DNA of 64,000 nt from Acidobacteriota bacterium (GTDB taxonomy: Bacteria > Acidobacteriota > Thermoanaerobaculia > UBA5066). The notes below the pieces were generated by a model. That model searched no databases and was not told the DNA's origin. It was given only the letters and a program-made list of their open reading frames with translations. Position numbers and translations under genes: made by a program. Below, piece after piece: positions 43,902-63,464 of the stretch. The stretch lies in contig JAKPXO010000136.1 of the NCBI GenBank assembly GCA_029567505.1, forward strand, positions 11,545 to 75,544, read 5' to 3'. Position 1 is the first letter of the stretch, and each line of letters starts with the position of its first letter.

Positions 43902-45125
43902 TCAGGCCGGAGAGGAGAGCCCCTCGGCGCTGCCGGCCGCCTCGACGAGCCGCTCGAGCGCGTCGACGAGGCTCTGTCGGGTCCGCTCGATCTCGGCGCG
44001 GAGCTCCTCGACCCGGATCTCGGCGAGCGCCTTGGCGCGCTGGCCGCGAAGGCGGGTCCCGGCGGCCGCGGCCGAGAGCGCCGCGGCGTAGTCGGCGCGC
44101 AGCTTCTCCAGCTGCGCGGCCGCCCGCTGGCGTGAGGCCTCGAGCTCGGCGAGCCTGTGGGAGGCGGAGGCGAGCGCCGTCTCGCGCCGCGCGGCCCAGG
44201 CCGCGGAGAGCTGCTCGGCGCGCGCATCCCACGACGCCTGCGCCGCGTCGAACGCCTCGCGGGCCCGCTCGAACGTCCTCCCCGTGAAGTGCCAGGCGGC
44301 CCGTTCGCGGGCGAGGGCGACGACCCGCTCCGGCACCGGGCGGAGGTCCCGCGCGATCCCGAAGAGCCGGCCGAGCCGGAGGAGCCAGAGGCTCGGGTCG
44401 GCCTGCCACCAGAGGAAGCCCTGTGCGGCGGAGGCCTGGAAGTGGTGGTGGTTGTTGTGCCACCCCTCGCCCATCGTCACGAGCGCCATCAGGAAGCTGT
44501 TCCGGCTCGTGTCCTTCGTCTCGAAGACGCGTCGCCCGAAGACGTGCATGACGCTGTTGATCGCGAACGTCCCGTGCCAGAGGAGGACCGTCGAGAGGAA
44601 GAAGCCCCAGAAGAGGCCGGTCCAGGAGAACGCGAGCCAGAGGCCGAGCCCGTAGAGCATCGGCGCGAGGAACTGGTTCCGGTCGAGCCAGACGAGCTCG
44701 GGGACCTTCGCGAAGTCGCGGATCGCGTCGAGGTCGGTCTCCTCGTAGTCGTCCGCGAGGATCCAACCCATGTGGCTCCACCAGAAGCCCTTCTGAACGG
44801 GCGAGTGGATGTCCTCGGGCTGGTCGGAGAAGCGGTGGTGGTGCCGGTGGTGCGCGGCCCACCAGAGGACTCCCTTCTGCGCCGCCGTCTGACCCAGGAA
44901 GGCCATCAGGAACTGCCAGAAGCGGTTCATCTTGTAGGTCCGGTGGGCGAAGTAGCGGTGGAAGCCCGCGGTGATCGCGAACATCCGCAGGTAGTACGAC
45001 GCGAGGCAGAGGGCGACGCCCTGCCAGGAGAGCCCGACCCACAGGACGCCGAGCGCGGCGACGTGGACGAGGCCGAAGCCGAAGGCGGCGGCGAAACGGA
45101 TGCGGGGGCGCGAGGTCGTCGTCAT
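43902..45125 (-). CDS. Acyl-CoA/acyl-lipid delta-9 desaturase (OLE1-like) with C-terminal coiled-coil tail
   Basis: His boxes HRYFAH, HHRHHH and GEGWHNNHH; motifs SHMGW, FAINS. Confidence 0.92.
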   Translation of the reverse strand: MTTTSRPRIRFAAAFGFGLVHVAALGVLWVGLSWQGVALCLASYYLRMFAITAGFHRYFAHRTYKMNRFWQFLMAFLGQTAAQKGVLWWAAHHRHHHRFSDQPEDIHSPVQKGFWWSHMGWILADDYEETDLDAIRDFAKVPELVWLDRNQFLAPMLYGLGLWLAFSWTGLFWGFFLSTVLLWHGTFAINSVMHVFGRRVFETKDTSRNSFLMALVTMGEGWHNNHHHFQASAAQGFLWWQADPSLWLLRLGRLFGIARDLRPVPERVVALARERAAWHFTGRTFERAREAFDAAQASWDARAEQLSAAWAARRETALASASHRLAELEASRQRAAAQLEKLRADYAAALSAAAAGTRLRGQRAKALAEIRVEELRAEIERTRQSLVDALERLVEAAGSAEGLSSPA

Positions 45126-45296: not shown

Positions 45297-46064
45297 TCAG
45301 GAGCGGGCGGCCGCCGTCTCCGCCGCCAGGGCGTCCTGCGCCTCCTGCATCCGGCCGCGGACGGTCGCGATCAGCTCTTCGAGGTCCGCCTCGCCGAGCC
45401 CTTCCGTCGGGATGGGCGGGAGGACGCGGATCCGGATCGTCCCGGGGAAGACGAGAAGGCGGTGGCCGTCGAGGACGTCGTCGAGCGGACCGCAGACGAT
45501 CGGCACGATCGGCACCTGCGCGGCGATCGCGAGGTGAAACGAGCCCTTCTTGAACGGCAGGAGCGTCGGCGAGCCGTTCCGGTGCCCTTCCGGGAAGACC
45601 CAGACGGAGATCCGCTTCTCCCGGACCCGCCTGGCCGCCGCTGCGATCGAGGCGATCGCGCTCGCCAGGTCCTTCCGGTCGAGGAGGATGTTGCCGGTCG
45701 CGCGGAAGAACCAGCCGAAGACGGGGATCTTCGCGATCTCCTTCTTGCCGATGACGACCGTCCGCTTCGGGAAGAGGCCGCCGTAGACGACGATGTCGAG
45801 GTTCGACCGGTGAGAGGCCATCAGGATCGCCGGCGCCACCTCGGTGACGCGCGGACGGTCCTCGACCGTGATCCGCCATCCGAGGAGCGTCCGGACGATC
45901 CAGTGGAAGAGCCGGGAGAGGTGAACGGGGGCGCTTCCGCGGCCGGCGCGAAGCGCGACGTAGAGGAGGCCTCCGATCGAGAGCCCGACGAACGCGAGCG
46001 CGCCGACGACGCACGCGAGGAGGAAGTGGACCCGCGCAAACGCGCGCCGGACGGGCCCCCTCAC
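45297..46064 (-). CDS. plsC: 1-acyl-sn-glycerol-3-phosphate acyltransferase (copy 1)
   Basis: GTG at 46064 overlaps the upstream stop. SHRSNLD (HxxxxD), IDR-like LLDR, FPEGHR, FKKGSF. Confidence 0.9.
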   Translation of the reverse strand: MRGPVRRAFARVHFLLACVVGALAFVGLSIGGLLYVALRAGRGSAPVHLSRLFHWIVRTLLGWRITVEDRPRVTEVAPAILMASHRSNLDIVVYGGLFPKRTVVIGKKEIAKIPVFGWFFRATGNILLDRKDLASAIASIAAAARRVREKRISVWVFPEGHRNGSPTLLPFKKGSFHLAIAAQVPIVPIVCGPLDDVLDGHRLLVFPGTIRIRVLPPIPTEGLGEADLEELIATVRGRMQEAQDALAAETAAARS

Positions 46065-46864
46065 GCCGGGGCCTTCTCGCCGGACGGAGCCGGGCTCGCG
46101 AGCATCGGCGGCACCGCGCCGGACGCGAGGTCGCGCTGCGCCGTCTCCATCGCGTCCCGCACGCGGGCCAGGAGAGCGCCGACGTCCCCTTCCGGAAGGT
46201 CGGCCACGGGGACGGGAGGGAGGACACGGATGCGGATCGTCCCGGGGCGGACGGCCCAGCGACGGGCGTCGAGGACCGTGTCGAGCGGGCTCACGGCGAG
46301 CGGGAGGATCGGAAAGCGCGCCCCGAGCGCGAGGTGGAAGACCCCCTTCTTGAAGGGGAGCAGCTCGCGCGACATGTTGCGATGCCCTTCCGGGGCGACC
46401 CAGACCGACACCCCGGCGCTCTTCGCCACCTCGGCGGCCTGCCGGATCGCCTCCATGGCGGCCGCCGTGTGCCGCCGGTCGATCAGGACGTTCCCGGTCG
46501 CGGTCCAGAGCCGCCCGAAGAACGGGATCCACTCGAGCTGCTTCTTGCCGATCGCGATCGCGCCGCGCGGGAAGATCTCCCCGTAGACGATGACGTCGAG
46601 GTTCGACTGGTGGCGCGCCATGACGACGGAGGGGGCGCACTCGGCGAAGCGCTCGGTCCCCTCCGCCTCGATGCGCCAGCCGAGCACCCGCTGCATCGCC
46701 CGCGAGTAGGACCGCGCGGCGAAGACGGCGGCGTGCCCCTCCGGCCCGCGGACGAGGGCGATCGCGAGCGCCGCCGCGGAGACGCCGAAGAAGAGGACTC
46801 CCCCGACGATCGACGCGGCGACGAAGTGGAGCGTGTAAACGCAGCGGCGGAGGAGGTACGGCAT
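46061..46864 (-). CDS. plsC: 1-acyl-sn-glycerol-3-phosphate acyltransferase (copy 2)
   Basis: RHQSNLD, LIDR, APEGHR, FKKGVF. Confidence 0.9.
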   Translation of the reverse strand: MPYLLRRCVYTLHFVAASIVGGVLFFGVSAAALAIALVRGPEGHAAVFAARSYSRAMQRVLGWRIEAEGTERFAECAPSVVMARHQSNLDVIVYGEIFPRGAIAIGKKQLEWIPFFGRLWTATGNVLIDRRHTAAAMEAIRQAAEVAKSAGVSVWVAPEGHRNMSRELLPFKKGVFHLALGARFPILPLAVSPLDTVLDARRWAVRPGTIRIRVLPPVPVADLPEGDVGALLARVRDAMETAQRDLASGAVPPMLASPAPSGEKAPA

Positions 46865-46899: not shown

Positions 46900-48147
46900 A
46901 TGGAGACGGGCGTCGCGATCCTCGGCGGAGGGGCCGCGGGGCTCCTCGCGGCGGCGTCGGCGGCGAGCCGGCTCCGCGCGGCCGGGAGCGCCGCGCGCGT
47001 CGTCGTCCTCGAAGCGGCCCGCGAGCCGGGGAGGAAGGTCCTCGTCTCGGGAGGCGGACGCTGCAACGTCCTTCCGTCGCGCGAGGCGCGAGAGCGCTTC
47101 GTCTCCTCCTCCCCGCGCCGCCTCGTCGACCGCTTCCTCGACCGCTTCCCGCTCGCCGCCCAGCGCGCCTTCTTCGAGGAGCTCCTCGGCGGCGCGCTCC
47201 GCGAGGAGCCGGAGAGCGCGAAGCTCTTCCCGCCGACGAACCGGGCGCGCGACGTGCGCGACGCGCTCCTGACGCGCGCCCGGGCGGAGGGCGCCGACGT
47301 TCGGACCGCCTCGCCCGTCCGCGGCCTCGTGGCGCGAAGCGAGGGCGGCTTCGACGTCCGCCTCGACGCGGGGACGCTCTCAGCGTCCGCGGTCGTCCTC
47401 GCCACGGGCGGGCGCTCGGTCCTCGCGGGAGGCGCCGACGCGGCGGGCTTCGACCAGGCCTCGTCGCTCGGCCACACGGTGCGGGCCCTGCGCCCCGCCC
47501 TCGTCCCGCTCACCGGCTCCTCTCCCGCCCACGCGGCCCTCTCGGGAGTCGCGCTCGAGGCGTTCGTCACGGCGCGGAGCGGCGACGAGAGCGCCGCGGC
47601 CCGCGGCGGCTTCCTCTTCACCCATCGAGGATGGAGCGGTCCGGCCGTCCTCGACGTCTCCCACGTCGTGACGCGCGCCCTCGCCGAGGAGAAGCCGTTC
47701 TCCGTCACGGTCTCGTTCGGCGGCGACGCGGCGTCCCGGGACGAGGCGCTCCGGGCCGGCTCGGGGAACGTCCTCTCGCTCCTCCGTCGCTCGCTCCCCG
47801 ACCGCGTCGCGTCGCTCCTCTTCGTCGAAGCCGGCGTCGCGCCCGAGACGCCGCTCCACCGGCTGACGCGCCAGGCGAGGCGTGCCGTCGTCGCGGTGCT
47901 TACGGCCCTTCCGCTCCCGGTCGACGGAAGCGAGGGCTACCGCACGGCCGAGGTGACCGCCGGCGGCGTCGCGCTCGAAGAGGTCGACCCGGGGAGCGGC
48001 GGGAGCCGCCTCGTTCCGGGCCTCTTCCTCGCAGGAGAGATCCTCGACGCCGTCGGACCGATCGGCGGCTTCAACTTCCAGTGGGCCTGGGCGACGGGGC
48101 GGACGGCGGGAGAAGGAGCGGCGCGGGCCGTTCTCGCGGGCGGCTGA
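46900..48147 (+). CDS. HI0933/BaiN(YhiN)-family FAD-dependent oxidoreductase
   Basis: ILGGGAAG, GRKVLVSGGGRCN, LATGG, GFLFTHRGWSGPAVLD, AEVTAGGV, GEILD..GPIGGFNFQWAWATG. Confidence 0.92.
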   Translation: METGVAILGGGAAGLLAAASAASRLRAAGSAARVVVLEAAREPGRKVLVSGGGRCNVLPSREARERFVSSSPRRLVDRFLDRFPLAAQRAFFEELLGGALREEPESAKLFPPTNRARDVRDALLTRARAEGADVRTASPVRGLVARSEGGFDVRLDAGTLSASAVVLATGGRSVLAGGADAAGFDQASSLGHTVRALRPALVPLTGSSPAHAALSGVALEAFVTARSGDESAAARGGFLFTHRGWSGPAVLDVSHVVTRALAEEKPFSVTVSFGGDAASRDEALRAGSGNVLSLLRRSLPDRVASLLFVEAGVAPETPLHRLTRQARRAVVAVLTALPLPVDGSEGYRTAEVTAGGVALEEVDPGSGGSRLVPGLFLAGEILDAVGPIGGFNFQWAWATGRTAGEGAARAVLAGG

Positions 48148-48160: not shown

Positions 48161-48502
48161 TCAGCCTTTCACGACGAAGCCACGCGCGGCGAGGAGCGGA
48201 CGCACGCGTTCGCGCACGTCTCCTGCGAGCTCGACCGCGCCGGGACGGACCGTCCCGCCGACCGCGCACGCCTTCTTCAGCGCCTTCGCGAGCTCCTCGA
48301 GGAACGGTCCGTTGTCGGGGAGCGCGTCGATCACCGTCACGCTCTTCCCGCCACGGCCCTTCTTCTCGATCCGGAGCTTCGCCGTCACCTTCGCGGGGAC
48401 CGGCTCGTCGAGCTTCTTCGAGCAGCGGCAGTCGTCGGCCGGCCAGCCGCACGTCGGGCAGATCCGCCCCTGACCGCTCGACCAGACGACGCGTCCGCTC
48501 AC
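48161..48502 (-). CDS. yciH: SUI1/eIF1-like translation initiation factor
   Basis: N-terminal CPTC...C.C, EKKGRGGKSVTVI, LKKACAVGGTV, ELAGD. Confidence 0.92.
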   Translation of the reverse strand: MSGRVVWSSGQGRICPTCGWPADDCRCSKKLDEPVPAKVTAKLRIEKKGRGGKSVTVIDALPDNGPFLEELAKALKKACAVGGTVRPGAVELAGDVRERVRPLLAARGFVVKG

Positions 48503-48625
48503 GGGAGGATCTTCTCAGACGGAGCGGATCCGGCCTTCGGCCGTGACTGGCCTCACGGGAAATTGAGATAGACTTGCAACTAACCCGACGGGACACCAGA
48601 TTGACGTTTCGAGGCACCCCCTCGG

Positions 48626-49522
48626 ATGACGTTTGGCATGCGCACGGAAGAGCTCGAGATCCGCGCCGGAGACGGCTTTTCGCTGGCGGCGACTCTCCAT
48701 CACCCGGAGGCGCCGGAGGAGGAATCCGTCGTCCTCGTGAACGCCGGAACCGGGATTCGCCGCGGCTTTTACGCGCGATTCGCGGCCTTCCTCGCGTCGT
48801 GCGGCTTCCCGGTCCTGACGTGGGACTACCGCGGGATCGGCGATTCGCGTCCCGCCTCGCTCCGAGGGTTTCGCGCGGCGATGCGGGACTGGGGGCGCGA
48901 GGACCTCGAGGCGCTTCTCGGCTGGGTCGGCGAGAGGCACCCGGGCCGTCCGATCCTCGTCGTCGGCCACAGCGCCGGAGGGCAGATCCTCGGTCTCGCC
49001 CCGTCGGCCTCGCGGATCTCCGCGGTCCTCGCCGTCGCCGCGCAGAGCGGCTGGTACCGGCACTGGCCCGTGCCGCGCCGGTACCTGATGGCCGGCCTCT
49101 GGTGGGGGCTCATGCCGGCGGCCACGGCGCTCTGCGGCTACTTCCCGTCGCGGGCGCTCGGCCTCGGCGAAGACCTGCCGAAGGGGGTCGCCCTCGAGTG
49201 GGCCCGCTGGTGCCGGAATCCGCAGTACATGGTCGACGCGAGCGGCGCCCCCCTCAGGCCTCATTTCGCCGACCTGCGCGCTCCGGTCCTCGCCTTCAGC
49301 TTCGCCGACGACCCGTTCGCCCCGCGCGCGGCCGTCGAGCAGCTGCTCTCCTTCTACACGGAAGCGAACGTCAGCCACCGCCACGTCGTCCCGGCGGAGA
49401 TCGGCCTCCGGGGCGTCGGCCATTTCGGCTTCTTCCGAGAGACCTGCCGCGAGGTGCTCTGGAAGGAGTGCGTCGACTGGCTGCGGCGCCGGGGCGCCGC
49501 GGCCGAAAGAGGAGTCGCATGA
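48626..49522 (+). CDS. Alpha/beta hydrolase (COG4757-like)
   Basis: TWDYRGIGDS, nucleophile elbow GHSAGG, SFADD, GHFGFF. Confidence 0.85.
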   Translation: MTFGMRTEELEIRAGDGFSLAATLHHPEAPEEESVVLVNAGTGIRRGFYARFAAFLASCGFPVLTWDYRGIGDSRPASLRGFRAAMRDWGREDLEALLGWVGERHPGRPILVVGHSAGGQILGLAPSASRISAVLAVAAQSGWYRHWPVPRRYLMAGLWWGLMPAATALCGYFPSRALGLGEDLPKGVALEWARWCRNPQYMVDASGAPLRPHFADLRAPVLAFSFADDPFAPRAAVEQLLSFYTEANVSHRHVVPAEIGLRGVGHFGFFRETCREVLWKECVDWLRRRGAAAERGVA

Positions 49523-50790
49523 AGAACGTCTCTCCGGAGCCCGCGCCGGTCCCCGAGGACGCGCAAGAGGAGCGCCGAGGGCCCGTGGCCGTTCCCGCCG
49601 CCGCACCGTCGCGGGCGCGTCGGCTCTTCCTCGACGCGCTCTCGGAGCATCTCACCGGCGCGCGGGTCGTCTTCCGGACGGAGGACGGCCGGCACGAGGT
49701 CGGCCGGGGCGAGGCCGTCGCCGCCGTCGTGAGGGTCCACCGCGAGCGCTTCTTCGAGAGGGCTCTCGCCCAGGGGAACCTCGGGCTCGGCGAGTCGTTC
49801 ATGGACGGGGACTGGGAGGTCGAGCAGGGGACGCTCGAAGGGCTCCTCGAGGCGCTCCTGCGGGCCCGGCTCGACCGAAAGCTCGCCGGCAACCCGGGCG
49901 TCGCGCTGAAGGTCCTCGCGCTCCAGCTCCTGAACGGCCTGCGGGGCCGGCAGTGGGCGCACGTCCAGCGCCACTACGACGTCGGCGACGACCTCTTCGA
50001 GCTCTTCCTCGACCGCTCCCTCGTCTACTCCTGCGGCTACCTCGTGAAGGAGGACGACTCGATCGAGAAGATGCAGGAGCAGAAGCTCGACCGGATCTGC
50101 CGGAAGCTCGGCCTGGCGCCAGGCGAGCGGCTCCTCGACATCGGCTGCGGCTTCGGCGGCCTCCTGATCCACGCCGCCTCGCGATTCGGTGTGACGGGCG
50201 TCGGCATCACGACGAGCGCGCGCCACGCGGCGAAGGGGATGGAGCGGGTCCGCGCGGCGGGGCTGGAGGGGCGCGTCGCCCTCGAGCTGCGCGACCACCG
50301 GACCGTCGAGGGGCGCTTCGACAAGGTCGTCAGCGTCGGGATGATGGAGCACCTGCCGCGGGGCGAGTACGCGCGCTACTTCGAGCGGATCGCGGCGGTC
50401 CTCACGCCCGAGGGGCGCGGCCTCGTCCACACGATCGGCTGCAACGCCGCGCGGAACCGCCACGACCCCTTCATCCAGAAGTACGTCTTCCCCGGCTCGG
50501 GGCAGCCGAAGCTCTCGGAGATGGCGGCGGAGTGCGAGCGGCACGGCCTCGCGATCCTGGACGTCGAGAACATGGTGCGGCACTACGCGCACACGGCCCG
50601 GCGCTGGCTCGACCGCTTCCGCGAGCGGGCGCACCTCCTCGACCCGAAGCGCTACGACGCCTCCTTCCGTCGGATGTGGGAGTACTACCTCTGCTGCTGC
50701 ATCGCCGGGGCGCGCGCCTCGGACGGCGCGCTCTACCAGGTGCTCTTCGCCCGCGACTACGCGGCCGAGATGCCCCTTCACCGCGTCTGA
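49519..50790 (+). CDS. cfa: Cyclopropane-fatty-acyl-phospholipid synthase-family SAM methyltransferase
   Basis: LGESFMDGDW, HYDVGDDLF..FLD..LVYSC, LLDIGCGFGG, DKVVSVGMMEH, FIQKYVFPG, RMWEYYL. RBS GAGGAG. Confidence 0.92.
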   Translation: MKNVSPEPAPVPEDAQEERRGPVAVPAAAPSRARRLFLDALSEHLTGARVVFRTEDGRHEVGRGEAVAAVVRVHRERFFERALAQGNLGLGESFMDGDWEVEQGTLEGLLEALLRARLDRKLAGNPGVALKVLALQLLNGLRGRQWAHVQRHYDVGDDLFELFLDRSLVYSCGYLVKEDDSIEKMQEQKLDRICRKLGLAPGERLLDIGCGFGGLLIHAASRFGVTGVGITTSARHAAKGMERVRAAGLEGRVALELRDHRTVEGRFDKVVSVGMMEHLPRGEYARYFERIAAVLTPEGRGLVHTIGCNAARNRHDPFIQKYVFPGSGQPKLSEMAAECERHGLAILDVENMVRHYAHTARRWLDRFRERAHLLDPKRYDASFRRMWEYYLCCCIAGARASDGALYQVLFARDYAAEMPLHRV

Positions 50791-50803
50791 GGAGGCCGAG
50801 ACC

Positions 50804-51886
50804 GTGAACGCCCTCTCCGTCCTGAACCAGCGGTGGGTCGAGGCCGGCTACACGCGCAAGCCCGTCGGCGTCCACCTCCTCCAGCTCGCGGCCCACGTCG
50901 CGTTCGCGCTCGGGGGCACGGCGCTCTACTTCCTCGTGCCGGGGCTCGCCGCGAAGGCGCTCGGGCTGCTCGTCTCCTCCTACGGGATGATCGGCATCTC
51001 GACGCACGCGCACACCTCCTCGCACAACGCGATCTTCGACGCGACGCCGCCGAACCGGGGCCTCGTCCACCTCGGCTTCCCGTTCCTCTGCGGCGTCTCG
51101 GCGCTCTACTGGTGGAACAAGCACGTCCACGTCCACCACCCGACGCCGAACGTCGTCGGCCTCGACGACGACGTCGACCTGATGCCGTTCTTCGCGCTCA
51201 CGCGCGAGGAGGCCGAGCGTGGCGGTCCGCTCCTGAAGCTCTGGTTCCGGGTCCAGGGAATTGCGATCGTCCCGATCCTCGCCCTCAACTGCTTCAACAT
51301 CCAGAAGACGGGCTGGTCGTACTGGCTCCGGACCCTCCGGGGTCCCGGGGCGAAGCGGGGCGCCCACGCGCTCGACCTCGCCCTCCTCCTCGGCCACTAC
51401 GTCTTCTGGATCGGCCTCCCGGCGCTCTTCTTCCCGCTCGGCGAGGTCGTCCTCTTCTACGTCGTCCGGATGCTCCTCCTCGGCTACGGGATGTTCGCCG
51501 TCTTCGCACCGGCCCACTTCCCGGCGCGGGCCAGCTTCGTCTCGGCGGAGGGGGAGACGAACCGGCTCGCCTACAAGAAGTCGAAGGACTTCATCCTCCT
51601 CCAGACGGCGACGACGGTGAACTTCCGGACCGGTCCGATCGGCCGCCTCCTCTGCCTCGGCGTGGAGTACCAGATCGAGCACCACCTCTTCCCCGGGATC
51701 TCGCACGTCCACTACCCGCGGCTCTCGGTGGAGCTGAAGCGCTTCTGCGAGGAGAACGGCTACCCGTATCGGACGCTCGGCTGGTGGGAGGGGATCGTCG
51801 AGTCGATCCGGGCGTTCCGGCACTTCAAGCCGGTCGAGCCGCGGCTCGAGGAGCTTCGCCTGCCGGCGGAGGGACAGGCGGCGTGA
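50804..51886 (+). CDS. Membrane fatty-acid desaturase, front-end (delta-6-like) type without cytochrome b5 domain
   Basis: His boxes HTSSH, HVHVHH and QIEHH (Gln-substituted third box), plus several TM helices. Confidence 0.88.
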   Translation: MNALSVLNQRWVEAGYTRKPVGVHLLQLAAHVAFALGGTALYFLVPGLAAKALGLLVSSYGMIGISTHAHTSSHNAIFDATPPNRGLVHLGFPFLCGVSALYWWNKHVHVHHPTPNVVGLDDDVDLMPFFALTREEAERGGPLLKLWFRVQGIAIVPILALNCFNIQKTGWSYWLRTLRGPGAKRGAHALDLALLLGHYVFWIGLPALFFPLGEVVLFYVVRMLLLGYGMFAVFAPAHFPARASFVSAEGETNRLAYKKSKDFILLQTATTVNFRTGPIGRLLCLGVEYQIEHHLFPGISHVHYPRLSVELKRFCEENGYPYRTLGWWEGIVESIRAFRHFKPVEPRLEELRLPAEGQAA

Positions 51887-52770
51887 GAGGGGAGCACGGT
51901 GACGGGGCGCTCCGGCGCCTCGGCGCCGCGCTCGACCGCCGTTGGGCCCGCTCCGCACGCCCGTCACGCGGAGAGGAGATCGAGCTCGCCGCCGGGCGCC
52001 TCCGCGTTCGCCGCGGGGGCGGGCCCGACGGCGTCCCGGTCGTCGTCGTCCCCGACCCGCCGAACGTCGTCGAGCACTACGACGGCGTCTTCGACGCCCT
52101 CGCGGCCGGCGGCCCCGTGGTGGTCGTCGAGGCGCCCGGATTCGGGTTCTCGGCGCCCCGGGAGGGCGCGCGCTACCGCATCGAGGAGCTCTCCTCCGCG
52201 CTCGAGGAGCTCCTCCTGCGCTTCGGCTTCCGCGGCGCGACCCTCTCGCTCGCCTGCGTCGGCGCGTTCGCGGCGGTGGACCTCGCGGCGCGCCGGCCGG
52301 ACCTCGTGGGCCGCCTCGTCCTCTCGCAAGTCGCGTCGCGGCGCGAGATGGCGTCGTGGGTGAGGCGCAAGGACGTCTGCGGGGTCATCCAGGCGCCGCT
52401 CCTCGGCCCGGTCGCGGTCCGGGCGGCGCGCCGGCGGATCGCGCGGTGGTGGTACCGCGCCGCCCTGCCGCCCGGGGCCGATCCCGGCCCCTTCGCCGCA
52501 CCCGCGCTCGCCGCGCTCCGTGCCGGGGCCGCGTTCCCGCTCGCCTCGGCCTTCCAGGAGTTCGCGCGCTTTCCGGGCGACCGCCTCCGGCCCGCCTGCC
52601 CCGTCACCGTCCTCCTCGGGACGGCCGACCCCACTCACGCGGGGACGGAGCTCGGCTCGGTCGCGGAGGAGCTCCCGGGCGCGCGCGTTCTCGTCTTTCC
52701 CCGCTCGGGGCACTTCCCCGACCTCGAGAACCCCGGGGAGTGGCTCGCCGCCCTACGCGCTCCCGCCTGA
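51883..52770 (+). CDS. Alpha/beta-hydrolase-fold protein with Cys at the nucleophile position
   Basis: GTG overlaps the desaturase stop. PDPPNVVEHY, EAPGFGFS, elbow SLACVGAF, C-terminal SGHFPDLE. Confidence 0.75.
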   Translation: MRGEHGDGALRRLGAALDRRWARSARPSRGEEIELAAGRLRVRRGGGPDGVPVVVVPDPPNVVEHYDGVFDALAAGGPVVVVEAPGFGFSAPREGARYRIEELSSALEELLLRFGFRGATLSLACVGAFAAVDLAARRPDLVGRLVLSQVASRREMASWVRRKDVCGVIQAPLLGPVAVRAARRRIARWWYRAALPPGADPGPFAAPALAALRAGAAFPLASAFQEFARFPGDRLRPACPVTVLLGTADPTHAGTELGSVAEELPGARVLVFPRSGHFPDLENPGEWLAALRAPA

Positions 52771-54597
52771 AGCCGGTGCGTCCGCTCGTGCGAGGGCCTC
52801 GCCGGCCGGAGAAGCGAGGACCTGGGCTGCGTGTTCGTAGCCGACCCGCTCCAGCTCCCGGATGAGCGAGAAGTCGAAGATCGAGTACTTCTCGATCGGG
52901 GGGTGGAAGAAGACGTCCGACAGGCGCTGCATCTCATCGACCTGCTGGACGCTCGCAAGCCCGGACGAGCGCATGAGGAGCTCGAAGAAGCCGGGCACCT
53001 GCGGCTTCTTCCCGAGGAGCTTGCGGAAGAGAAGCCCCCAGGAATTCGGCGCCATCGTCAGCGCCGGGTCGACGCTCAGGTCCTCCACGGGACTGACGTC
53101 GATCGTGACGACGGTCCCGGAGCAGCGGCCGCGCATCACGTCGACGGGGAGATTCGCGAGGACGGCGCCGTCGACGAGGAGGTCGCCCCCCTCGAAGGCC
53201 GGTGGCGCGAGGCCCGGCACCGCGATGCTCGCGCCGAGGGCCCTCCAGGCGGGCCCGGCGTCGTGCACCTCGACGCGCGCCCGCGTCAGGTTGCTCGAGC
53301 AGCAGAAGAACGGGATCCGGAGGTCTTCGAGACGCGCCTCGCCGTAGATCGCGCGGGCCACGGAGTAGAAACGCCGCCCGGTGACGAAGCCGAGATACGG
53401 AAACGTGTAGTCCTTCAGCGGCTTCGTCCGGGTCCACGTCACCTCGTTGAACGTGAGCATCTTCCGCGCGTCCCACCCCATCGCGACCTGCGCGCCGAGG
53501 AACGCGCCCATGCTCGTCCCGCCCACGACGTCGAACGAGACGCCCCGTTCCGCGAGCGCCCGGAGGACGCCGATCTGCGCGAACGATCGGGCTCCGCCGC
53601 CGCCGAGGACGAGGCCGCGCACCTCGCCCGTCAGCGACCGGACGAGACGCTCCATCTCGCCCGGTGCGCTCTCGGCGACGTGGTGATGGGCCCGGACGCG
53701 CCGCGGCGCGAGCCACGTGCTCGTCCCGAGGTAGAGCGGCTTCGTCTCGCGGTGGAGGAGGACGAGGTCGGCGGTCCTCACGTCGGCGAGACCCTGGCGG
53801 GCGAGGAGCGCCTCGATCGGCCCGGGAGCGGGGCTCCCGTCGTCGGGCGCGACGAAGAGGATCCGGTCGGCCTGGCGGAGGCAGCGGCTCGTCCAGGACG
53901 AGGGGCCGGGCTCTGCCTCGTAGACTACGAAGCGGTGCTTCTCCTCCTGCTCGTTCAGGTACGCCACGATCCCGGAGTTGCGAGAGGAGTCGCGGGCGGC
54001 CTGGGCGGCGCCCTCGCCGAGGGCGCTGTCGAGAGCGGACGCGTCGAGGTGCCGGACGCTCCCGCGCTTTCCGAGAGCTTCGACGAGCCGCCGGGTGAAC
54101 TCCGCGATCCGTCCGTCCTTCTGCGTCGTGGCCACGGCGATCGTCGAGATCCGCCCGGCGGAGGCGCCGCGTCGGCCGGCGAGGACCGACTGGTAGTGGC
54201 CGATGATCCGCCGCGTCAGCCCGTGCATGAGGCGCGGATGCGTCTCGAGGAGCCGCCGGAACGCCTCACCCGACAGGCGGAGGAGGTCGGTGTCGCGCCG
54301 CGAGCGGGCCGTTGCGCTTCGCCGCTCGCCCGTCAGGAGCGCCATCTCGCCGAGGCACTCTCCGGGGCCGGCCTCGCCGATCGGGCGCAGCGAGCCGTCG
54401 GGGAGCGTCAGCGACACTTCGATCCGGCCGCTTGCGACGATGTAGAGGCAGTCGCCCGTCTCCCCGTGCTCGAAGACGGTCTCGCCTCCGGGGACCCGGA
54501 CCGGCTCGAACTCCGGGCCGATGCGCGCGAGGTCTTCCGGGGCGAGCCCCCCGAACAGGCGCGTCGTCGACAGGATCTCGGGAATCGACAGGCTCAC
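52753..54597 (-). CDS. cNMP-binding domain + patatin-like phospholipase (NTE-like)
   Basis: GTG at 54597 with GGAGG RBS. cNMP GEMALLTGERRSATA, patatin GGGGAR, GTSMG, DGA. Confidence 0.92.
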   Translation of the reverse strand: MSLSIPEILSTTRLFGGLAPEDLARIGPEFEPVRVPGGETVFEHGETGDCLYIVASGRIEVSLTLPDGSLRPIGEAGPGECLGEMALLTGERRSATARSRRDTDLLRLSGEAFRRLLETHPRLMHGLTRRIIGHYQSVLAGRRGASAGRISTIAVATTQKDGRIAEFTRRLVEALGKRGSVRHLDASALDSALGEGAAQAARDSSRNSGIVAYLNEQEEKHRFVVYEAEPGPSSWTSRCLRQADRILFVAPDDGSPAPGPIEALLARQGLADVRTADLVLLHRETKPLYLGTSTWLAPRRVRAHHHVAESAPGEMERLVRSLTGEVRGLVLGGGGARSFAQIGVLRALAERGVSFDVVGGTSMGAFLGAQVAMGWDARKMLTFNEVTWTRTKPLKDYTFPYLGFVTGRRFYSVARAIYGEARLEDLRIPFFCCSSNLTRARVEVHDAGPAWRALGASIAVPGLAPPAFEGGDLLVDGAVLANLPVDVMRGRCSGTVVTIDVSPVEDLSVDPALTMAPNSWGLLFRKLLGKKPQVPGFFELLMRSSGLASVQQVDEMQRLSDVFFHPPIEKYSIFDFSLIRELERVGYEHAAQVLASPAGEALARADAPASGGSA

Positions 54598-54720
54598 GGG
54601 CACCCTCCGTCGGCGTTGTTCGGCGTTCCGGCGATTTTTGGGGGCGGATGCTAGCAAGAAGAGGGCGGGGAGCGCGCGGAACGCTGCGGCGGCGAGGGCG
54701 CGTCGACGGAGGTCGCCGCG

Positions 54721-55875
54721 TCAGGCGTCGTCGTCCCCGGCGGCGCCGGCGACGAGGAGGTCGAAGCCGTCGGACCCCGCGAGGAGGCGGTCGACCGTAC
54801 CAGGGAGAAGGCGCGCCGCGAGGCCGCGCCGCGACGGGGGGCCGACGATCACGATCCCGACGCTCTCGTCCCTCACGAAGCGGAGGACCTCGGCGGCCAC
54901 GTCCTCGGCCTCCCTCACGACGGCCGTCGCGCCGAGGGTCATCGCGAGCTCGACGTTCTCGGTCAGGGCGCGGTGCTGCCGGGCCGAGAGGCGCTCGGGC
55001 CGTTCCCTCGCCCGGCGGACGTGGAGGGCGAACCAGCGCGTGTTCATCCTCCCGGCGACGCGCGAGCCGCGGAGGATCAGCCTCCTCCCCGTCTCGGGCT
55101 CGAGCGGAATGGCGACGGCCACGCGCGCCTGCGTCGAGGCGGCCTCGAACGCCCCGGAATCGTGGGCGTCGGCCTCGATGTGATCGGCCGTCTGGAAGAG
55201 CGTCAGCTCGCGCAGGCGGGTCAGCTTCTCCTCGGTGAAGAAGCTCGAGAGCGCCTGCTCGGCTTTCTCCGGCGCGTAGACCTTCCCGATCCGGATCCGC
55301 TCGCGGAGCTCCTCGACGGGGAGGTCGACGACGACGAGGGCGTCGGCGTCGCGGACGACCCGGTCGGGGATCCGCTCGCGCACCTCGATCCCGGTGACGG
55401 AGCCGACGACGTCCTGGACCCCCTCGAGGTGCTGGACGTTGACCGCGGCCATGACGGAGATCCCGGCCGCGAGGATCTCCTCGACGTCCTTCCAGCGCTT
55501 CTCGTTCCGGCAGCCCGGGGCGTTCGTGTGGGCGAGCTCGTCGACGATGACGACGTCGGGCTTACGCCGGAGGATCGCGTCGAGGTCCATCTCCGGAAGG
55601 ACGACCCCCTGGTAGCTCACCTGCTTGCGCGGCACGACCGGGAGGTCGCCGATCCGCGCCTCCGTCTCCGGGCGGCCGTGGGCCTCCACGTAGCCGACGA
55701 CGACGTCGGTGCCGTGCCGGAGCAGGGAGTGGGCGTCGTCGAGCATCTTGTAGGTCTTGCCGACCCCGGCCGCCATCCCGAGGTAGACCTTGAGCCGGCC
55801 CGGGCGCGCGTCGCGCGCGGCCCTCCGGAGAAAGGCCTCCGGGTCGGGGCGGCGGACGTCCGCGAGGAGCGGCAT
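54721..55875 (-). CDS. kdpD: Stand-alone cytoplasmic KdpD N-terminal part (KdpD domain + Usp domain)
   Basis: GRLKVYLGMAAGVGKTYKML, EMDLDA, VDELAHTN, KRWKDV, NVQHLE, ERIRIGKVY, then a Usp-like domain. It stops at 384 aa with no TM or kinase domain. Confidence 0.92.
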   Translation of the reverse strand: MPLLADVRRPDPEAFLRRAARDARPGRLKVYLGMAAGVGKTYKMLDDAHSLLRHGTDVVVGYVEAHGRPETEARIGDLPVVPRKQVSYQGVVLPEMDLDAILRRKPDVVIVDELAHTNAPGCRNEKRWKDVEEILAAGISVMAAVNVQHLEGVQDVVGSVTGIEVRERIPDRVVRDADALVVVDLPVEELRERIRIGKVYAPEKAEQALSSFFTEEKLTRLRELTLFQTADHIEADAHDSGAFEAASTQARVAVAIPLEPETGRRLILRGSRVAGRMNTRWFALHVRRARERPERLSARQHRALTENVELAMTLGATAVVREAEDVAAEVLRFVRDESVGIVIVGPPSRRGLAARLLPGTVDRLLAGSDGFDLLVAGAAGDDDA

Positions 55876-55882
55876 GGCTCGA

Positions 55883-56485
55883 TTATCGAGGCGGCGGCTC
55901 GCCGCCCGCCGGGGGCGGACGCCGGGAGAGGACGTCGAGGTTCAGGAGGAGGACGTTCACGCGCGGCTCGCCGTAGAGGCCGAGGAAGCGGCCCTCGGTG
56001 CGCCGGGCGACCATCGCCTCGAGCTCGATGGCGGGGATCCCCGACTCGCGCGAAACGCGCGGTACCTGCCAGAGAGCGAACTCGGGCGAGACGTGGGGGT
56101 CGAGGCCGGAGCCCGAAGCCGTGACGGCGTCGGCCGGGACGGGTCCCTTCGTGCTCGGGTTCTCGGCCCTGGCGCGGGCCACCTCCGCCGTGACTCGGTC
56201 GGCGAGCGCCTTCGAGGTGGGGCCGCGGTTCGAGCCGCACGAGGCAGCCGCGTCGTGGCCCGCCCCGGCGGCGGACGGTCGGGGCCGGAAGAGGCCCGGC
56301 GAAGTCACGGCCTGGCCGATCCGCTCGGAGCCGACGACCTTTTCGCCGTGCGTCACGAACGAGCCGCCCGCGGGACGCGGGAACGCGACGCGGCCGACGG
56401 CCCAGACGACGGCCGGGTAGGCGAAGCCGAGGAGCAAGGTGAAGACGACGAGGAGGCGGGCGGAGACGAGGACGTGGTCTTTCAC
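55883..56485 (-). CDS. kdpC: K+-transporting ATPase subunit C
   Basis: GFAYP, GSERIGQ, FRPRPSA, GSNRGPTS, DAVTASGSGLDPH, EPRVNVLLLN. Confidence 0.95.
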   Translation of the reverse strand: MKDHVLVSARLLVVFTLLLGFAYPAVVWAVGRVAFPRPAGGSFVTHGEKVVGSERIGQAVTSPGLFRPRPSAAGAGHDAAASCGSNRGPTSKALADRVTAEVARARAENPSTKGPVPADAVTASGSGLDPHVSPEFALWQVPRVSRESGIPAIELEAMVARRTEGRFLGLYGEPRVNVLLLNLDVLSRRPPPAGGEPPPR

Positions 56486-56495
56486 GGCAGTCCCC

Positions 56496-58535
56496 TCAGG
56501 CCAGCTTGAGGGCGACGAGGAGGAGGTCGATGGCCTTGATCCCGACGAAGGGGACGACGAGGCCGCCGAGGCCGTAGATCAGGAGGTTCCTCCGGAGGAT
56601 CCGACCCGCGCCGAGCGGGCGGTAGGAGACCCCCCGGAGCGCGAGCGGGATCAGGACGACGATGATCAGCGCGTTGAAGATGACGGCCGAGAGGATCGCG
56701 CTCTCGGGCGTCGCGAGCTTCATGACGTTGAGGGCCTGGAGCTGGGGATAGGTCGCGACGAAGAGGGCGGGGAGGATCGCGAAGTACTTCGCGACGTCGT
56801 TGCTGATCGAGAACGTCGTCAGAGCTCCGCGGGTCATCAGGAGCTGCTTGCCGATCTCGACGACCTCGATGAGCTTCGTCGGGTTCGAGTCGAGGTCGAC
56901 CATGTTCCCGGCTTCCTTCGCCGCCTGGGTGCCCGTGTTCATCGCCATGCCGACGTCGGCCTGCGCGAGCGCGGGAGCGTCGTTCGTCCCGTCGCCGGTC
57001 ATCGCGACGAGGTTCCCGGCCGCCTGTTCCTTCCGGATGAGGGCGAGCTTGTCCTCGGGCCTGGCCTCGGCAAGGAAGTCGTCGACCCCCGCCTCGCGGG
57101 CGATGCTCGCGGCGGTGAGCGGGTTGTCGCCCGTGATCATGACGGTCCGGATCCCCATGGCGCGGAGCCGGTCGAAGCGTTCCTTCATTCCGCCCTTGAC
57201 GACGTCCTTGAGGTAGATTGTCCCGGCGACCTGCCCGCCGTCGGCGACGACGAGGGGCGTCCCCCCGTCGCCGGCGATCCGGGAGACGTCGCGCCGGACC
57301 TCCTCGGGGAAGAGGCCGCCGAGGCCGCGGACGAACGCGTCGACGGCGTCGGCCGCCCCCTTGCGCACCTTCCGCCCCCCCTCGAAGTCGAGGCCCGACA
57401 TCCGGGTCCGCGCCGTGAACGGCACGCAGTGGGCGTGCAGGTCGCGCAGCTCGCGGCCGCGAAGGCCGTGCTTCTCCTTGGCGAGGACGACGATCGAGCG
57501 CCCCTCGGGGGTCTCGTCGGCGAGGGAGGCGACCTGGGCGAGCTCGGCGAGCTCGCGCTCGGAGACGCCCGGCGCGGGGAGGAGCTGCGTGGCCTGGCGG
57601 TTGCCGAGCGTGATCGTCCCGGTCTTGTCGAGGAGGAGGACGTTCACGTCGCCCGAGGCCTCGACGGCGCGCCCCGACATCGCGAGGACGTTGTGCGTCA
57701 GGACGCGGTCCATCCCGGCGATGCCGATCGCGGAGAGGAGCCCGCCGATCGTCGTCGGGATCAGGCAGACGAGGAGGGCGACGAGAACCGTCGGCGAGAC
57801 GTCTCCCCCGGAATAGAGGGCGAAGGGGCGGAGCGTGACCGTCGCGAAGAGGAAGACGATCGTCAGGCCGGCGAGGAGGATGTCGAGGGCGATCTCGTTC
57901 GGCGTCTTCTGCCTCTCGGCCCCTTCGACGAGCCCGATCATCCGGTCGAGGAACGTGGAGCCGGGCTCGGAGGTGATCTCGACGACGATCCGGTCGGAGA
58001 GAACCCGCGTCCCTCCCGTCACGGCGGAGCGGTCGCCGCCCGCCTCGCGGATGACGGGGCCCGACTCGCCCGTGATGGCCGACTCGTCGACCGAGGCGAT
58101 CCCCTCGACGACGGTCCCGTCGCCCGGGATCAGCTGGCCGGTCTCGACGACGACGAGGTCGCCCTTCCGGAGGCTCGAGGCCGGGACCTGCTCCTCGCGC
58201 CGCCCGGCGCCGACGAGGCGGCGGGCGACGGCGTCGGTCTTCGTCTTCCGGAGCGCGTCGGCCTGCGCCTTCCCCCGCCCTTCGGCGACCGCCTCGGCGA
58301 AGTTCGCGAAGAGGACGGTGGCCCAGAGCCAGAGGACGACCTGGAGCTGGAACGAGAGCGATCCGCGCGTGCCGAGGCCGACGAGCGGGAGCGTCGCGAG
58401 GACGGCGCCCGCCTCGACGACGAACATCACCGGGTTCCTCGCCATGTGGCGGGGGTGGAGCTTGCGGAAGGCGTCCCGGGCGGCGCGACCCAGGAGGGTC
58501 GGGTCGAGGAGCCGGGACTCGGCGTGTTTCGTCAC
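56496..58535 (-). CDS. kdpB: K+-transporting ATPase subunit B
   Basis: GTG at 58535. [45 protein letters not shown]. Confidence 0.97.
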
Positions 58536-58543
58536 GGAAGGCC

Positions 58544-60253
58544 TCAGAAGGTCCGGCCCGCGGCCATCAGCAGCTGCTCGACGACCGGGCCGAGGGAGAG
58601 GACGGGAAAGAAGGTGAGCGCCCCGACGACGACGAGGACCCCGGCGAGGAGCAAGGTGAACAGGGGGCCGTCGACCGGGAACGTCCCGGCCGACTCGGCG
58701 AGCTTCTTCTTGGCGGCGAGCGACCCGGCCATGCCGAGGATCGGCACGATCATCAGGAACCGGCCGAAGAACATCGAGAGGCCCAGCAGCAGGTTGTAGA
58801 AGTCCGTGTTCGCGTTCAGGCCGGCGAAGGCGCTCCCGTTGTTCCCGGCCGCGCTCGTGAACGCGTAGAGCGCCTGCGAGAGGCCGTGCGGCCCGCCGTT
58901 CGTGAGCCCCCAGAGGCCGGCCTTCGTCGCGACGGCCGCGGCGGTCCCGACGAGGATGCAGAAGGTCAGGACGAGGACCGAGAGCATCGCGAGCTTTACC
59001 TCGCCGCCCTCGATCTTCTTGCCGAGGTACTCGGGCGTCCGGCCGACCATCAGGCCCGCGATGAAGACCGAGAGGACGACGAAGACGAAGGCCCCGTAGA
59101 GCCCCGCGCCGACGCCGCCGAAGATCACCTCGCCGAGCTGGACGTTCACGAGCGGGACGAGGCCGCCGAGCGGCGTGAAGGAGTCGTGCATCCCGTTCAC
59201 GGCGCCGCAGGAGGCGGCGGTCGTGACCGTCGCGAAGAGGGCGGTGTCGCCCGGCCCGAAGCGGACCTCCTTCCCCTCCATGTTGCCGGCGCTCGGGTCG
59301 ACGCCCGCCGCGTGGTGGATCGGGTCGCCTCGGGTCTCGGCCCACGCCGCGACGCCCGCCCCGACGAGGAAGAGGAGCCCCATGGCCCAAAAGACGGCCC
59401 AGCCGTGGCGCGTCTTGCCGGTCATCGACCCGAGCGTGTACGTCAACCCCGCGGGGATCGCGAAGATGAGGACCATCTCGAGGAGGTTCGTCGCGGGCGT
59501 CGGGTTCTCGTACGGGTGGGCGGAGTTCGCGTTGAAGAAGCCGCCGCCGTTCGTCCCGAGCTCCTTGATCGCCTCCTGCGAGGCGACGGGCCCGAGCGGG
59601 ATCGTCTGAGTCGCCCCGTCGAGCGTCGACACCTTCGCCGACGGGGAGAAGGACTGCACGACCCCCTGCGACATCAGGACGACCGCCGCGAGGACGGAAA
59701 GCGGCAGGAGGACCCAGAGCGTCGAGCGGGTCAGGTCGACCCAGAAGCTGCCGATCGTCCGGGATTCGGCGCGCGCGATCCCCCGGATGACGGCCACGGC
59801 GATCGCGATCCCGGTGGCGGCCGAGAGGAAGTTGTGGACGGCGAGGGCCGACATCTGCGTCAGGTGCGACATCGTCGACTCGCCCGCGTAGGCCTGCCAG
59901 TTCGTGTTCGTCACGAACGAGATCGCCGTGTTCCAGGCGAGCGCGGGCGGGACGGCCGGGAGCCTGTCCGGATTCAGCGGGAGGAGGTGCTGGAGCCTCT
60001 CGAACGCATAGACGCCGAGGACCCCGAGGACGCTGAAGACGAGCATCGAGGAGACGTAGGCCTTCCAGTCCTGCTCCTTCTTCGGGTCGACGCCGCCGAG
60101 GCGATAGAGGGCCCTCTCCACCGGGAGGAGGACGGGGTCGAGGAACGTCCGCTCGCCGGAGAAGGCCCGGCGCATGTAGAGGCCGAGCGGCTTCGTCACC
60201 GCGAGGACGAGGAGGAAGTAGACCGCGATCTTCAGGAACGCGAGCGCTGTCAC
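58544..60253 (-). CDS. kdpA: K+-transporting ATPase subunit A
   Basis: [68 protein letters not shown]. Confidence 0.97.
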
Positions 60254-62762: not shown

Positions 62763-63464
62763 TCAGTCCGGGAGCGGCTCGGCGACGAAGCGGTAGCCGA
62801 CCCAGGGCTCGGTGACGACGTAGCGGGGCGCCGACGGGTCGGGCTCGAGCTTCTTCCTCATCGTCCCGACGTGGACGCGGACGACGTCGACCGTCGTCCC
62901 CGGAGCCCCCTTCCAGACACGCGCGATGATCCTCGCCGTCGTCACCGGCCTGCCGGCATTCGTCGCGAGGAGCTCGAGGATCGCGAACTCGGTCGGCGTC
63001 AGCTTCACCTCGCGCTCCCCCTGGACGACGCGCCGCCGGTCGAGGTCGATCGAGAGCCCTTCGAACTCGAGGACGGTCCGGGCGGGGGCGACGCCGCTCC
63101 TCCGGAGCTGGGCCCGGAGCCGGGCGAGGAGCTCGGGGACGGAGAACGGCTTCGTGACGAAGTCGTCGGCGCCGAGGTCGAGGGCGCGGATCTTGTCGAC
63201 GTCCGCGCCCCGGACGGAGAGGACGACGACGGGGGTGGCGCCGGTGCGGCGCACCTCGCGGATCAGCTCGAAGCCGTCGGCGACCGGCATGGCGAGGTCC
63301 GTGAGGACGAGGTCGGGCGCGCCGCTCCCGAAGAGGGCGATTCCCTGCCGGCCGTCGGCCGCCTCGAGCACGTCGTAGCCGGCGGCGCCCAGCTCGGTCG
63401 CGAGGCCCCTCCGGATCGTCGGGTCGTCCTCGACGACGAGGACGCAGGCGCTCCCGTGCGTCAC
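62763..63464 (-). CDS. kdpE: OmpR-family response regulator KdpE
   Basis: VVEDD, LTDLAMP, ALDLGADDFVTKPF, KLTPTEF, VHVGTMRKKLE.DPSAPRYVVTEPWVGYRF. Confidence 0.9.
   Translation of the reverse strand: MTHGSACVLVVEDDPTIRRGLATELGAAGYDVLEAADGRQGIALFGSGAPDLVLTDLAMPVADGFELIREVRRTGATPVVVLSVRGADVDKIRALDLGADDFVTKPFSVPELLARLRAQLRRSGVAPARTVLEFEGLSIDLDRRRVVQGEREVKLTPTEFAILELLATNAGRPVTTARIIARVWKGAPGTTVDVVRVHVGTMRKKLEPDPSAPRYVVTEPWVGYRFVAEPLPD

Follow-up and report, generated by a model that had tools for sequence, protein, structure and literature searches.

The closest characterised precedent for the gene cluster described here is a pair of cyanobacterial enzymes, FshF and FshD, from the fsh (fischerazole) cluster of Fischerella sp. 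PCC 9431. Our cluster is a four-gene operon on the plus strand (genes A-B-C-D, positions 48626-52770) in a 64-kb stretch of Acidobacteriota DNA (contig JAKPXO010000136.1), hereafter called the window. It encodes a serine-type hydrolase (A), a Cfa-type methyltransferase (B), a membrane desaturase (C) and an alpha/beta-fold enzyme with a cysteine nucleophile (D). According to PMC13548996, the fsh cluster is a natural-product cluster with polyketide synthase (PKS), nonribosomal peptide synthetase (NRPS) and halogenase genes, which acts on chains bound to acyl carrier protein (ACP). FshF, an enzyme resembling cyclopropane fatty acid synthases (CFAS), converts an ACP-bound 16:1 chain into vinyl-branched and cyclopropane products and is encoded beside the membrane desaturase FshD; the authors mention many uncharacterised homologues in several phyla (PMC13548996). 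Compared by description, our locus shares with fsh the combination of a CFAS-like methyltransferase and a membrane desaturase, and the fatty acyl-AMP ligase (FAAL), ACP and P450 of fsh are also found in three of its relatives (loci L003, L004 and L168). In contrast, the FAAL-PlsC fusion and the P450 of these relatives were not found in the 64-kb window by tblastn, and its scanned genes included no ACP, PKS or NRPS, although stand-alone ACP or PKS/NRPS genes were not specifically searched for. The description of fsh consulted (PMC13548996) also has no mention of alpha/beta hydrolases such as those of our locus. A genome scan that started from the B homologue of cyanobacteria returned no Fischerella locus.

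A Cfa-family methylase and a desaturase likewise work in turn on a phospholipid acyl chain in the UfaM-UfaD-UfaO furan pathway of Rhodobacter and Rhodopseudomonas, in which UfaD is a soluble, phytoene-desaturase-like protein predicted to bind NAD/FAD and UfaO belongs to DUF1365 (PMC7380195). C, however, is a membrane di-iron enzyme, and membership of the furan pathway was rejected because Pfam detected no UfaD- or UfaO-type domain in the operon, the tested neighbours or the annotated related clusters. Furan, conjugated and cyclopropene acids, which the preliminary description of this locus had named as possible products, are guesses. The 10-methyl stearate pathway of Actinobacteria (BfaA/BfaB, or TmsA/TmsB; PMC5660069) is another system in which a Cfa-family methyltransferase targets a cis double bond in the middle of an acyl chain bound to lipid. 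It differs in needing an FAD-binding oxidoreductase to reduce the methylene group. No FAD_binding_4 partner occurs in our operon, and only one relative has such a gene (L167, ~2.4 kb downstream of the desaturase on the opposite strand), so this pathway was rejected as well.

In fungi, a sphingolipid Delta8-desaturase reportedly acts before a CMAS-family C9-methyltransferase, which methylates the new double bond; work by Ternes et al. from 2006 is said to describe this order and these families. Both enzymes are listed in PMC6920741. The fungal pair resembles C and B in joining a QxxHH front-end desaturase to a CMAS-family methyltransferase. It differs in being eukaryotic, with unlinked genes, a ceramide long-chain-base substrate, a cytochrome b5 on the desaturase and no hydrolases. 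The cyanobacterial Delta6-desaturase DesD also has a QxxHH third box. Set beside C by description, DesD and the Bacillus Delta5-desaturase Des are of similar size, lack cytochrome b5 and use lipid-bound substrates. The difference lies in the setting, since the C-family gene of the cyanobacteria Symploca and Caldora sits in a transferable A/B/C/D cluster, with no recognisable housekeeping desaturase context. A literature search for this gene combination and for bacterial cyclopropenes returned no paper that characterises the module.

Our results show that A, B, C and D form a conserved gene module, which was probably spread horizontally and of which the window carries a compact version. We scored ~185 loci from species genomes and metagenomes by tblastn and called a B-type gene adjacent when it lay within 3 kb. 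Among relatives of C with at least 41% identity, a B-type gene was adjacent in 26 of the 36 loci that had enough upstream flank; two further cyanobacterial loci of this identity band, with B 3–4 kb off, were left out of the 26. At 33–41% identity (mostly Nannocystis) adjacency was found at 1 of 11 loci, and below 33% identity, where QxxHH desaturases of Actinomycetota, Chloroflexota and Bacteroidota served as controls, at none of 72. When genes of the B clade were looked up independently, C adjoined them at five loci (L167, L168, L169, L173 and L174). The exception was L170, whose B-like product is 54% identical, has a weak DUF7884 match and lies in another neighbourhood with no C beside it. 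Hence, B and C are grouped beyond chance, and the functional link between the Cfa-type enzyme and the desaturase is supported. Conservation of the neighbourhood, which the preliminary description had put forward as a check, thus holds across phyla.

The two hydrolases follow this pattern less strictly. Where at least 3 kb of flank was available on both sides, an A-type gene was present at 9 and a D-type gene at 6 of 17 loci of the close clade, and both were absent from all 63 controls. The earlier proposal that the hydrolases belong with the other two enzymes stands insofar as they are part of the same conserved set, but they are missing from about half of the clusters. A and D are therefore accessory to the module.

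All four families occur together in Acidobacteriota (the window and L002), Myxococcota (Hyalangium, L014 and L132), Betaproteobacteria (Achromobacter kerstersii, L008/L009), Gammaproteobacteria (Bermanella L011 and Granulosicoccus L152) and Cyanobacteria (Symploca and Caldora, L169-L172), as well as on a metagenome contig (L183). That they were kept together in five phyla, at identities of 30–60%, is strong evidence of a shared function. The order of the window is repeated in Hyalangium, as A-B-C-(A2)-D at both loci, and also in Archangium (L118; A, B and C up to the end of the locus) and a Myxococcaceae metagenome-assembled genome (MAG; L148) as far as these loci reach. Other lineages have a different order: B-C-A-A-D in Achromobacter kerstersii, C-A-desaturase-D-(A)-B-PlsC in Symploca and Caldora, and B-C-(LCM-type methyltransferase)-A-D in L183. 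In Bermanella, two divergent A genes are followed by a Delta9-type desaturase, B, C, a third desaturase and D. A Methylomirabilota MAG (L007) contains B and C. A link between this pair and the 10-methyl-16:1 acid of Methylomirabilis was considered and set aside; no literature or chemical connection was found, and it remains an idea.

Some of these loci deserve separate mention. The methyltransferase of L183 (5147-6010, LCM family, PF04072) lies between the desaturase and the A-type gene and could O-methylate a released free acid. At L167, two tandem CMAS genes (4559-7293) stand directly upstream of the C-type gene, and the first, of 481 aa, has a weak DUF7884 match. Tandem Cfa-like genes were also seen in Nocardioides (Actinomycetota; L180/L181), and a Rhodospirillales locus (L182) gave tblastn matches to a FAAL, two Delta9-type desaturases and a Cfa-like gene (36% identity).

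Within the window the four genes are tightly coupled, with the boundaries and spacings that had been described earlier: reading the sequence again confirmed two overlaps of 4 nt and one gap of 13 nt. A and B share an ATGA overlap, in which the ATG of B (49519, within gcATGAag) lies over the TGA of A, and an AGAGGAG Shine-Dalgarno sequence precedes the start of B. The spacer between B and C (50791-50803, 13 nt) includes GGAGG. C and D overlap by a GTGA of 4 nt, and both start with GTG. For A, another possible ATG at 48638 agrees with the N-terminus of the L002 orthologue. A sequence scan found neither a terminator nor a strong promoter inside the operon, and its G+C content of ~72% is the same as that of the remaining window. 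Upstream of A, 123 nt (48503-48625) separate it from a divergent SUI1/YciH gene (48161-48502, minus strand). By its position alone this intergenic region is presumed to hold the operon promoter; a promoter scan gave no sigma-70-like match in it, and a riboswitch or leader was rejected because Rfam had no match there. Another SUI1/YciH gene (L014 1287-1670) lies ~4 kb upstream of the Hyalangium cluster, and the shared presence is probably a coincidence.

The window belongs to an Acidobacteriota lineage of activated sludge or wastewater, with 94–95% protein identity to the Holophagales MAG of locus L002 and to 'Acidobacteria bacterium RA.bin138'. Two RNA-Seq metatranscriptomes, of wastewater and of biofilm, yielded contigs (from strains 95–99% similar) that cover the operon. 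One contig (49322-49569) bridges the junction of A and B, and two others (50484-50806 and 50305-51810) bridge that of B and C. These contigs support transcription and co-transcription of the operon but are not proof, as they are unstranded and DNA carry-over is possible. A plasmid-borne or mobile origin found no support, for a C homologue was present in 0 of the 72,556 plasmids searched.

B (49519..50790) is a methyltransferase of the CFAS/CMAS type that depends on S-adenosylmethionine (SAM), with a score of 246 bits to PF02353 CMAS (cut-off 27). Its best match in the PDB is E. coli Cfa (6BQC; 1e-69, B residues 67-413). The two share the SAM motif, the two-domain length and all five residues of the bicarbonate site: C172, E277, H304, I306 and Y356 of B align to C139, E239, H266, I268 and Y317 of E. 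coli Cfa. B also keeps the N-domain of E. coli Cfa. The N-terminal domain of Cfa serves phospholipid binding. In other respects B departs from this enzyme. It reaches 324 bits against the cut-off of 400 on PRK11705, the NCBIfam equivalog of E. coli-type Cfa, an enzyme whose product is a cis-cyclopropane at Delta9 or Delta11 of phospholipid chains. It also falls under the cut-off of every other NCBIfam Cfa equivalog model, including those for Brucella and for CfaB. Twenty-five (25) residues are invariant in the clade of B but different in both solved CFAS compared (E. coli and Aquifex), and B is almost always paired with a dedicated desaturase. Judged from these comparisons, B represents a distinct paralogue clade outside the E. 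coli Cfa equivalog; NCBI names its homologues just 'class I SAM-dependent methyltransferase'. Neither a signal peptide nor a transmembrane segment was predicted.

C (50804..51886, plus strand) is a di-iron membrane fatty-acid desaturase of 360 aa (PF00487 FA_desaturase, 96 bits). Its three histidine boxes, H70xxxH74 (HTSSH), H107xxxH111H112 (HVHVHH) and Q290IEH293H294, were invariant in 15 homologues, as was H238. The third box forms the front-end signature QIEHHLFP, which bears out the earlier assignment as a front-end desaturase, here without a fused cytochrome b5, since FA_desaturase is the sole Pfam domain. Hydrophobic segments at residues 28-58, 143-164 and 192-235 are typical of membrane desaturases. 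A sequence search against the PDB gave no match; the structural model (pLDDT 83) matched AlkB and two chains of algal Ycf2/Orf2971-FtsHi motor complexes in a fold search. JGI labels homologues of C as 'linoleoyl-CoA desaturase'. C thus appears to be a front-end-type desaturase, and enzymes of this type insert the double bond between the carboxyl group and an existing mid-chain feature. The preliminary description had called QxxHH front-end desaturases uncommon in heterotrophic bacteria, which holds in a relative sense only. We obtained 731 C-type matches at E <= 1e-10, and several thousand Cfa-like matches. At least 577 relatives of C were confirmed in species genomes, and the 80 that were inspected came mostly from heterotrophic Actinomycetota, Chloroflexota and Bacteroidota. 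What is rare is the clade of C and its pairing with a Cfa-type enzyme.

A (48626..49522, plus strand) is a soluble alpha/beta hydrolase (Pfam Abhydrolase_6 / Hydrolase_4) with neither a transmembrane segment nor a signal peptide predicted. Its triad of Ser116 (in the GxSxG elbow GHSAGGQ), Asp229 and His266 was unchanged in 10 orthologues. In a profile search against the PDB, monoacylglycerol lipases were among the top matches (~1e-8), beside other esterases. A distantly resembles monoacylglycerol lipases and lysophospholipases, and a corresponding activity is predicted.

D (51883..52770, plus strand) is likewise soluble, with no predicted signal peptide or transmembrane segment, and Pfam assigns it only to Abhydrolase_1 and Abhydrolase_6, which places it outside the dienelactone hydrolase (DLH) family. 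Its nucleophile is a cysteine: C125, D249 and H277 were invariant in 20 database homologues and in the orthologues of five phyla. The AlphaFold model (mean pLDDT 94) places C125 at the nucleophile elbow between strand 119-124 and helix 127-137, D249 after strand 241-246 and H277 after strand 268-272, which are the classic positions of the triad. The preliminary assignment of Ser and Cys nucleophiles to A and D is therefore well founded. Two further motifs are invariant and specific to the D family, D58-P-P60-N..E64-H65 at the usual HG-type oxyanion site and P85GFGFS. Foldseek returned epoxide hydrolases, (fluoroacetate) dehalogenases and esterases at TM ~0.7, and a profile search returned meta-cleavage-product (MCP) C-C hydrolases, polyhydroxybutyrate (PHB) depolymerase, enol-lactonases and 6I8W, which we take to be the membrane phospholipase A PlaF. 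The solved structures nearest D are Ser- or Asp-nucleophile enzymes and, to our knowledge, none of the structural or profile matches uses Cys; hence D constitutes a separate Cys-Asp-His subfamily.

We regard D tentatively as a hydrolase of acyl (thio)esters or as a transacylase. The Cys-dependent lipid enzymes Lnt, LRAT/PLAAT and polyhydroxyalkanoate (PHA) synthase hold an acyl group as a thioester and then transfer it. By analogy with these enzymes, which work via an acyl-Cys thioester, a role as transacylase is plausible for D. A D-family gene that is 37% identical (L184 7001-7930) lies between the carboxyltransferase and biotin-carboxylase subunits of propionyl-CoA carboxylase and also adjoins methylmalonyl-CoA mutase and MeaB. 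This setting hints at thioester chemistry.

Several genes around the operon may belong to the same function. A Delta9-type acyl-lipid desaturase (43902..45125, minus strand; PF00487, NCBIfam DesA family, with HHRHH and HNNHH boxes) lies 3.5 kb upstream and has a helical-looking C-terminal extension of ~140 aa, rich in Ala, Glu and Arg. A homologue in Bermanella L011 (46% identical, 314 aa) lacks this extension and immediately precedes the Cfa gene. Two tandem PlsC-type 1-acylglycerol-3-phosphate acyltransferases (45297-46067 and 46061-46864, minus strand; PF01553) overlap by 7 nt and are ~45–50% identical to each other, judged from cross-matches in L002 and L013; PlsC domains recur in clusters L003, L004, L168 and L169. 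Downstream, a patatin phospholipase of the NTE type (52753..54657, minus strand; Pfam cNMP_binding + NTE_Ploop + Patatin) is convergent with D, overlapping its 3' end by 18 coding nt. A contig of 1965 nt spans this overlap; its library is labelled metatranscriptomic, with an uncertain RNA origin. L018 and L117 likewise have patatins next to their C-family desaturases, and two patatins precede C at a Blastocatellales locus that lacks B. We consider the Delta9-type desaturase, the PlsC pair and the patatin as possible accessory genes and infer their link to the operon.

More elaborate versions of the cluster occur elsewhere. L003 (Sulfurifustaceae), L004 (Kofleriaceae) and L168 (metagenome), although from unrelated sources, have the common layout [extra desaturase]-[ACP-FAAL-PlsC fusion]-[unknown]-[P450]-B-C-A-A. 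In this eight-gene variant, the extra HxxHH desaturase was seen in L004 and L168, and the unknown protein has a weak Peptidase_C26 match. The Hyalangium cluster is followed by a phosphopantetheinyl transferase (PPTase), a 4HBT thioesterase and a FAAL, and on an Acidobacteriota-type contig DegV and FakA are divergent from B. Their common theme is the activation, esterification, modification and de-esterification of acyl chains. An HI0933-type flavoprotein of the window (46900-48147) was considered as a conserved reductase partner and rejected, because it recurs only in the same lineage and once, at a distance, in Longimicrobium. Further downstream, a kdp locus (54721-60253, minus strand) encodes KdpC, KdpA, an open reading frame (ORF) taken as KdpB and a 384-aa protein whose sole Pfam match is to the KdpD sensor domain, while a kinase domain was not detected. 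The locus is followed by an ORF of 662 aa with no Pfam match (60768-62756) and an OmpR-type response regulator (62763-63464).

From the enzyme families, catalytic residues, operon structure and co-occurrence reported above, we infer a pathway of acyl-chain tailoring, to which we give a probability of about 40%. In this pathway C would introduce a cis double bond into a lipid-bound acyl chain, in an O2-dependent reaction with an electron donor encoded elsewhere. With SAM as the donor, B would then add a methyl carbon across a cis double bond, probably that introduced by C. This would yield a cyclopropane, or a chain with a methyl or vinyl branch, at a site that the housekeeping Cfa does not modify. 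A and D might strip the tailored chain from a glycerolipid or thioester carrier, or hand it on, and could join the PlsC acyltransferases and the patatin nearby in a cycle of deacylation and reacylation. The products, the order of the steps and the roles of the hydrolases are thus proposals. That C would precede B is suggested by their asymmetric occurrence: C without B occurs (~10 of the 36 close loci plus the Nannocystis subclade) and B without C is rare, which fits B depending on the product of C. The same order is suggested by the fungal and fsh precedents and by the requirement of known CFAS enzymes for a cis olefin (PMC13548996). As to the substrate pool, a lipid-bound chain would fit the Cfa-like N-domain and active site of B, the likeness of A to monoacylglycerol lipases, the match of D to 6I8W and the PlsC, ACP-FAAL-PlsC, FakA/DegV and patatin genes that recur beside the module.

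Several points weigh against acyl-chain tailoring in this form. The operon encodes neither a ferredoxin nor a cytochrome b5, A and D were found in just 9 and just 6 of 17 clusters, respectively, and members of the D family at 33–37% identity occur in unrelated contexts, including the propionyl-CoA carboxylase operon. No module member has a known product. Front-end desaturases usually act on chains that already bear a Delta9 feature, and the nearby Delta9-type desaturase could supply the olefin of B, with C acting later. Possibly, then, the order is reversed: B would first cyclopropanate or methylate a Delta9 or Delta11 bond that fatty acid synthase or the Delta9-type desaturase nearby had introduced, and C would desaturate afterwards. 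The second double bond could lie between ring and carboxyl group, or else at the ring or branch itself, where the outcome would be a cyclopropene or a conjugated methyl-diene that is a precursor of the furan type. The Delta9-type gene, which lies 3.5 kb upstream of the operon here and immediately before B in Bermanella, would suit this order, as would the general need of front-end desaturases for a mid-chain feature. B also precedes C in the gene order of almost all clusters, and in the furan pathway methylation by UfaM comes before desaturation by UfaD (PMC7380195). However, several lineages have a C-family gene without B, so that C needs no product of B there, and the module is accompanied by neither UfaO (DUF1365) nor a gene of the UfaD type. 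Bacterial cyclopropene fatty acids are not known, and our literature search found none. We regard the reversed order as rather unlikely.

Alternatively, the chain might be carried by a protein, as in fsh, with B and C modifying a chain linked as a thioester to ACP or to the Cys of D and the hydrolases loading or off-loading a lipid natural product for secretion. The example of FshF, a CFAS-like enzyme that works on chains attached to ACP and can form products other than cyclopropanes, also counts against the lipid-bound tailoring proposed above. FAAL, ACP, membrane desaturase, CFAS-like methyltransferase and P450 are united in the fsh cluster (PMC13548996). Three relatives of our locus have the ACP-FAAL-PlsC fusion and the P450 directly upstream of B-C-A-A, the genes after the Hyalangium cluster (PPTase, thioesterase and FAAL) fit as well, and the Cys of D, with a D-like gene inside an acyl-CoA carboxylase operon, suits thioester chemistry. 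Yet the window gave no match to the fusion or the P450, and B keeps the N-terminal domain that serves phospholipid binding in Cfa, which makes a carrier-bound pathway improbable for this locus. It is similarly hard to credit that the operon merely serves ordinary membrane adaptation, with B as a second Cfa and C as an acyl-lipid desaturase acting independently, and the hydrolases as unrelated housekeeping esterases on a shared transcript. The cyclopropane-synthase active site of B is intact, both families are classic enzymes of membrane adaptation, and half of the clusters have no hydrolases, all of which would be in line with this explanation. In contrast, the B-C pairing is clade-specific, kept in five phyla and absent from the 72 control desaturase loci, the NCBI Cfa equivalog models reject B, and the A and D families, including the rare Cys variant, accompany B and C in distant phyla. 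The release of a defence lipid, which the preliminary description had also suggested, found no backing, and a part in anti-phage defence was rejected: PADLOC gave only a generic methyltransferase-domain match for B (mad2) and generic cNMP/patatin matches for the neighbouring gene.

If acyl-chain tailoring is nevertheless what these enzymes do, the module probably points to an undescribed fatty-acid product and a turnover step. A front-end desaturase together with a Cfa-type enzyme may give a cyclopropane, a methyl or a vinyl branch near the carboxyl end, or a cyclopropene. In a more ambitious and distinctly doubtful version, the module makes an undescribed bacterial fatty acid and D is the first Cys-dependent lipid transacylase of the alpha/beta fold; it would then take the chain off a phospholipid or thioester and attach it to another acceptor. 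As a speculation, the pair might also be connected to the branched glycerol dialkyl glycerol tetraethers (brGDGTs), since many Acidobacteriota carry B and C, which could supply their front-end C5 and C6 methyl branches. We know of no enzymes for the C5 and C6 methyls of these lipids, and a literature search found nothing on brGDGT methylation genes.

Overall, the earlier observation of a coupled lipid-tailoring operon is confirmed, and its interpretation is supported in part. The enzyme families themselves are familiar. What sets the module apart is the conserved four-family set, with a non-canonical Cfa clade, a clade of front-end desaturases without cytochrome b5 and a new alpha/beta hydrolase of the Cys type. 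Unusual bacterial fatty acids, such as mid-chain methylated, cyclopropanated and furan acids, are used as environmental biomarkers and as industrial feedstocks, and they also act as signals and stress protectants. Many of them lack assigned genes, and identification of the product could explain orphan fatty-acid biomarkers. The module is carried by bacteria that can be cultivated (Hyalangium, Archangium, Achromobacter kerstersii and Variovorax ureilyticus), so that the question is open to direct tests. The identity of the product would give a function to large clades in which many proteins now bear just a generic label, such as 'class I SAM-dependent methyltransferase' or 'acyl-CoA desaturase'.

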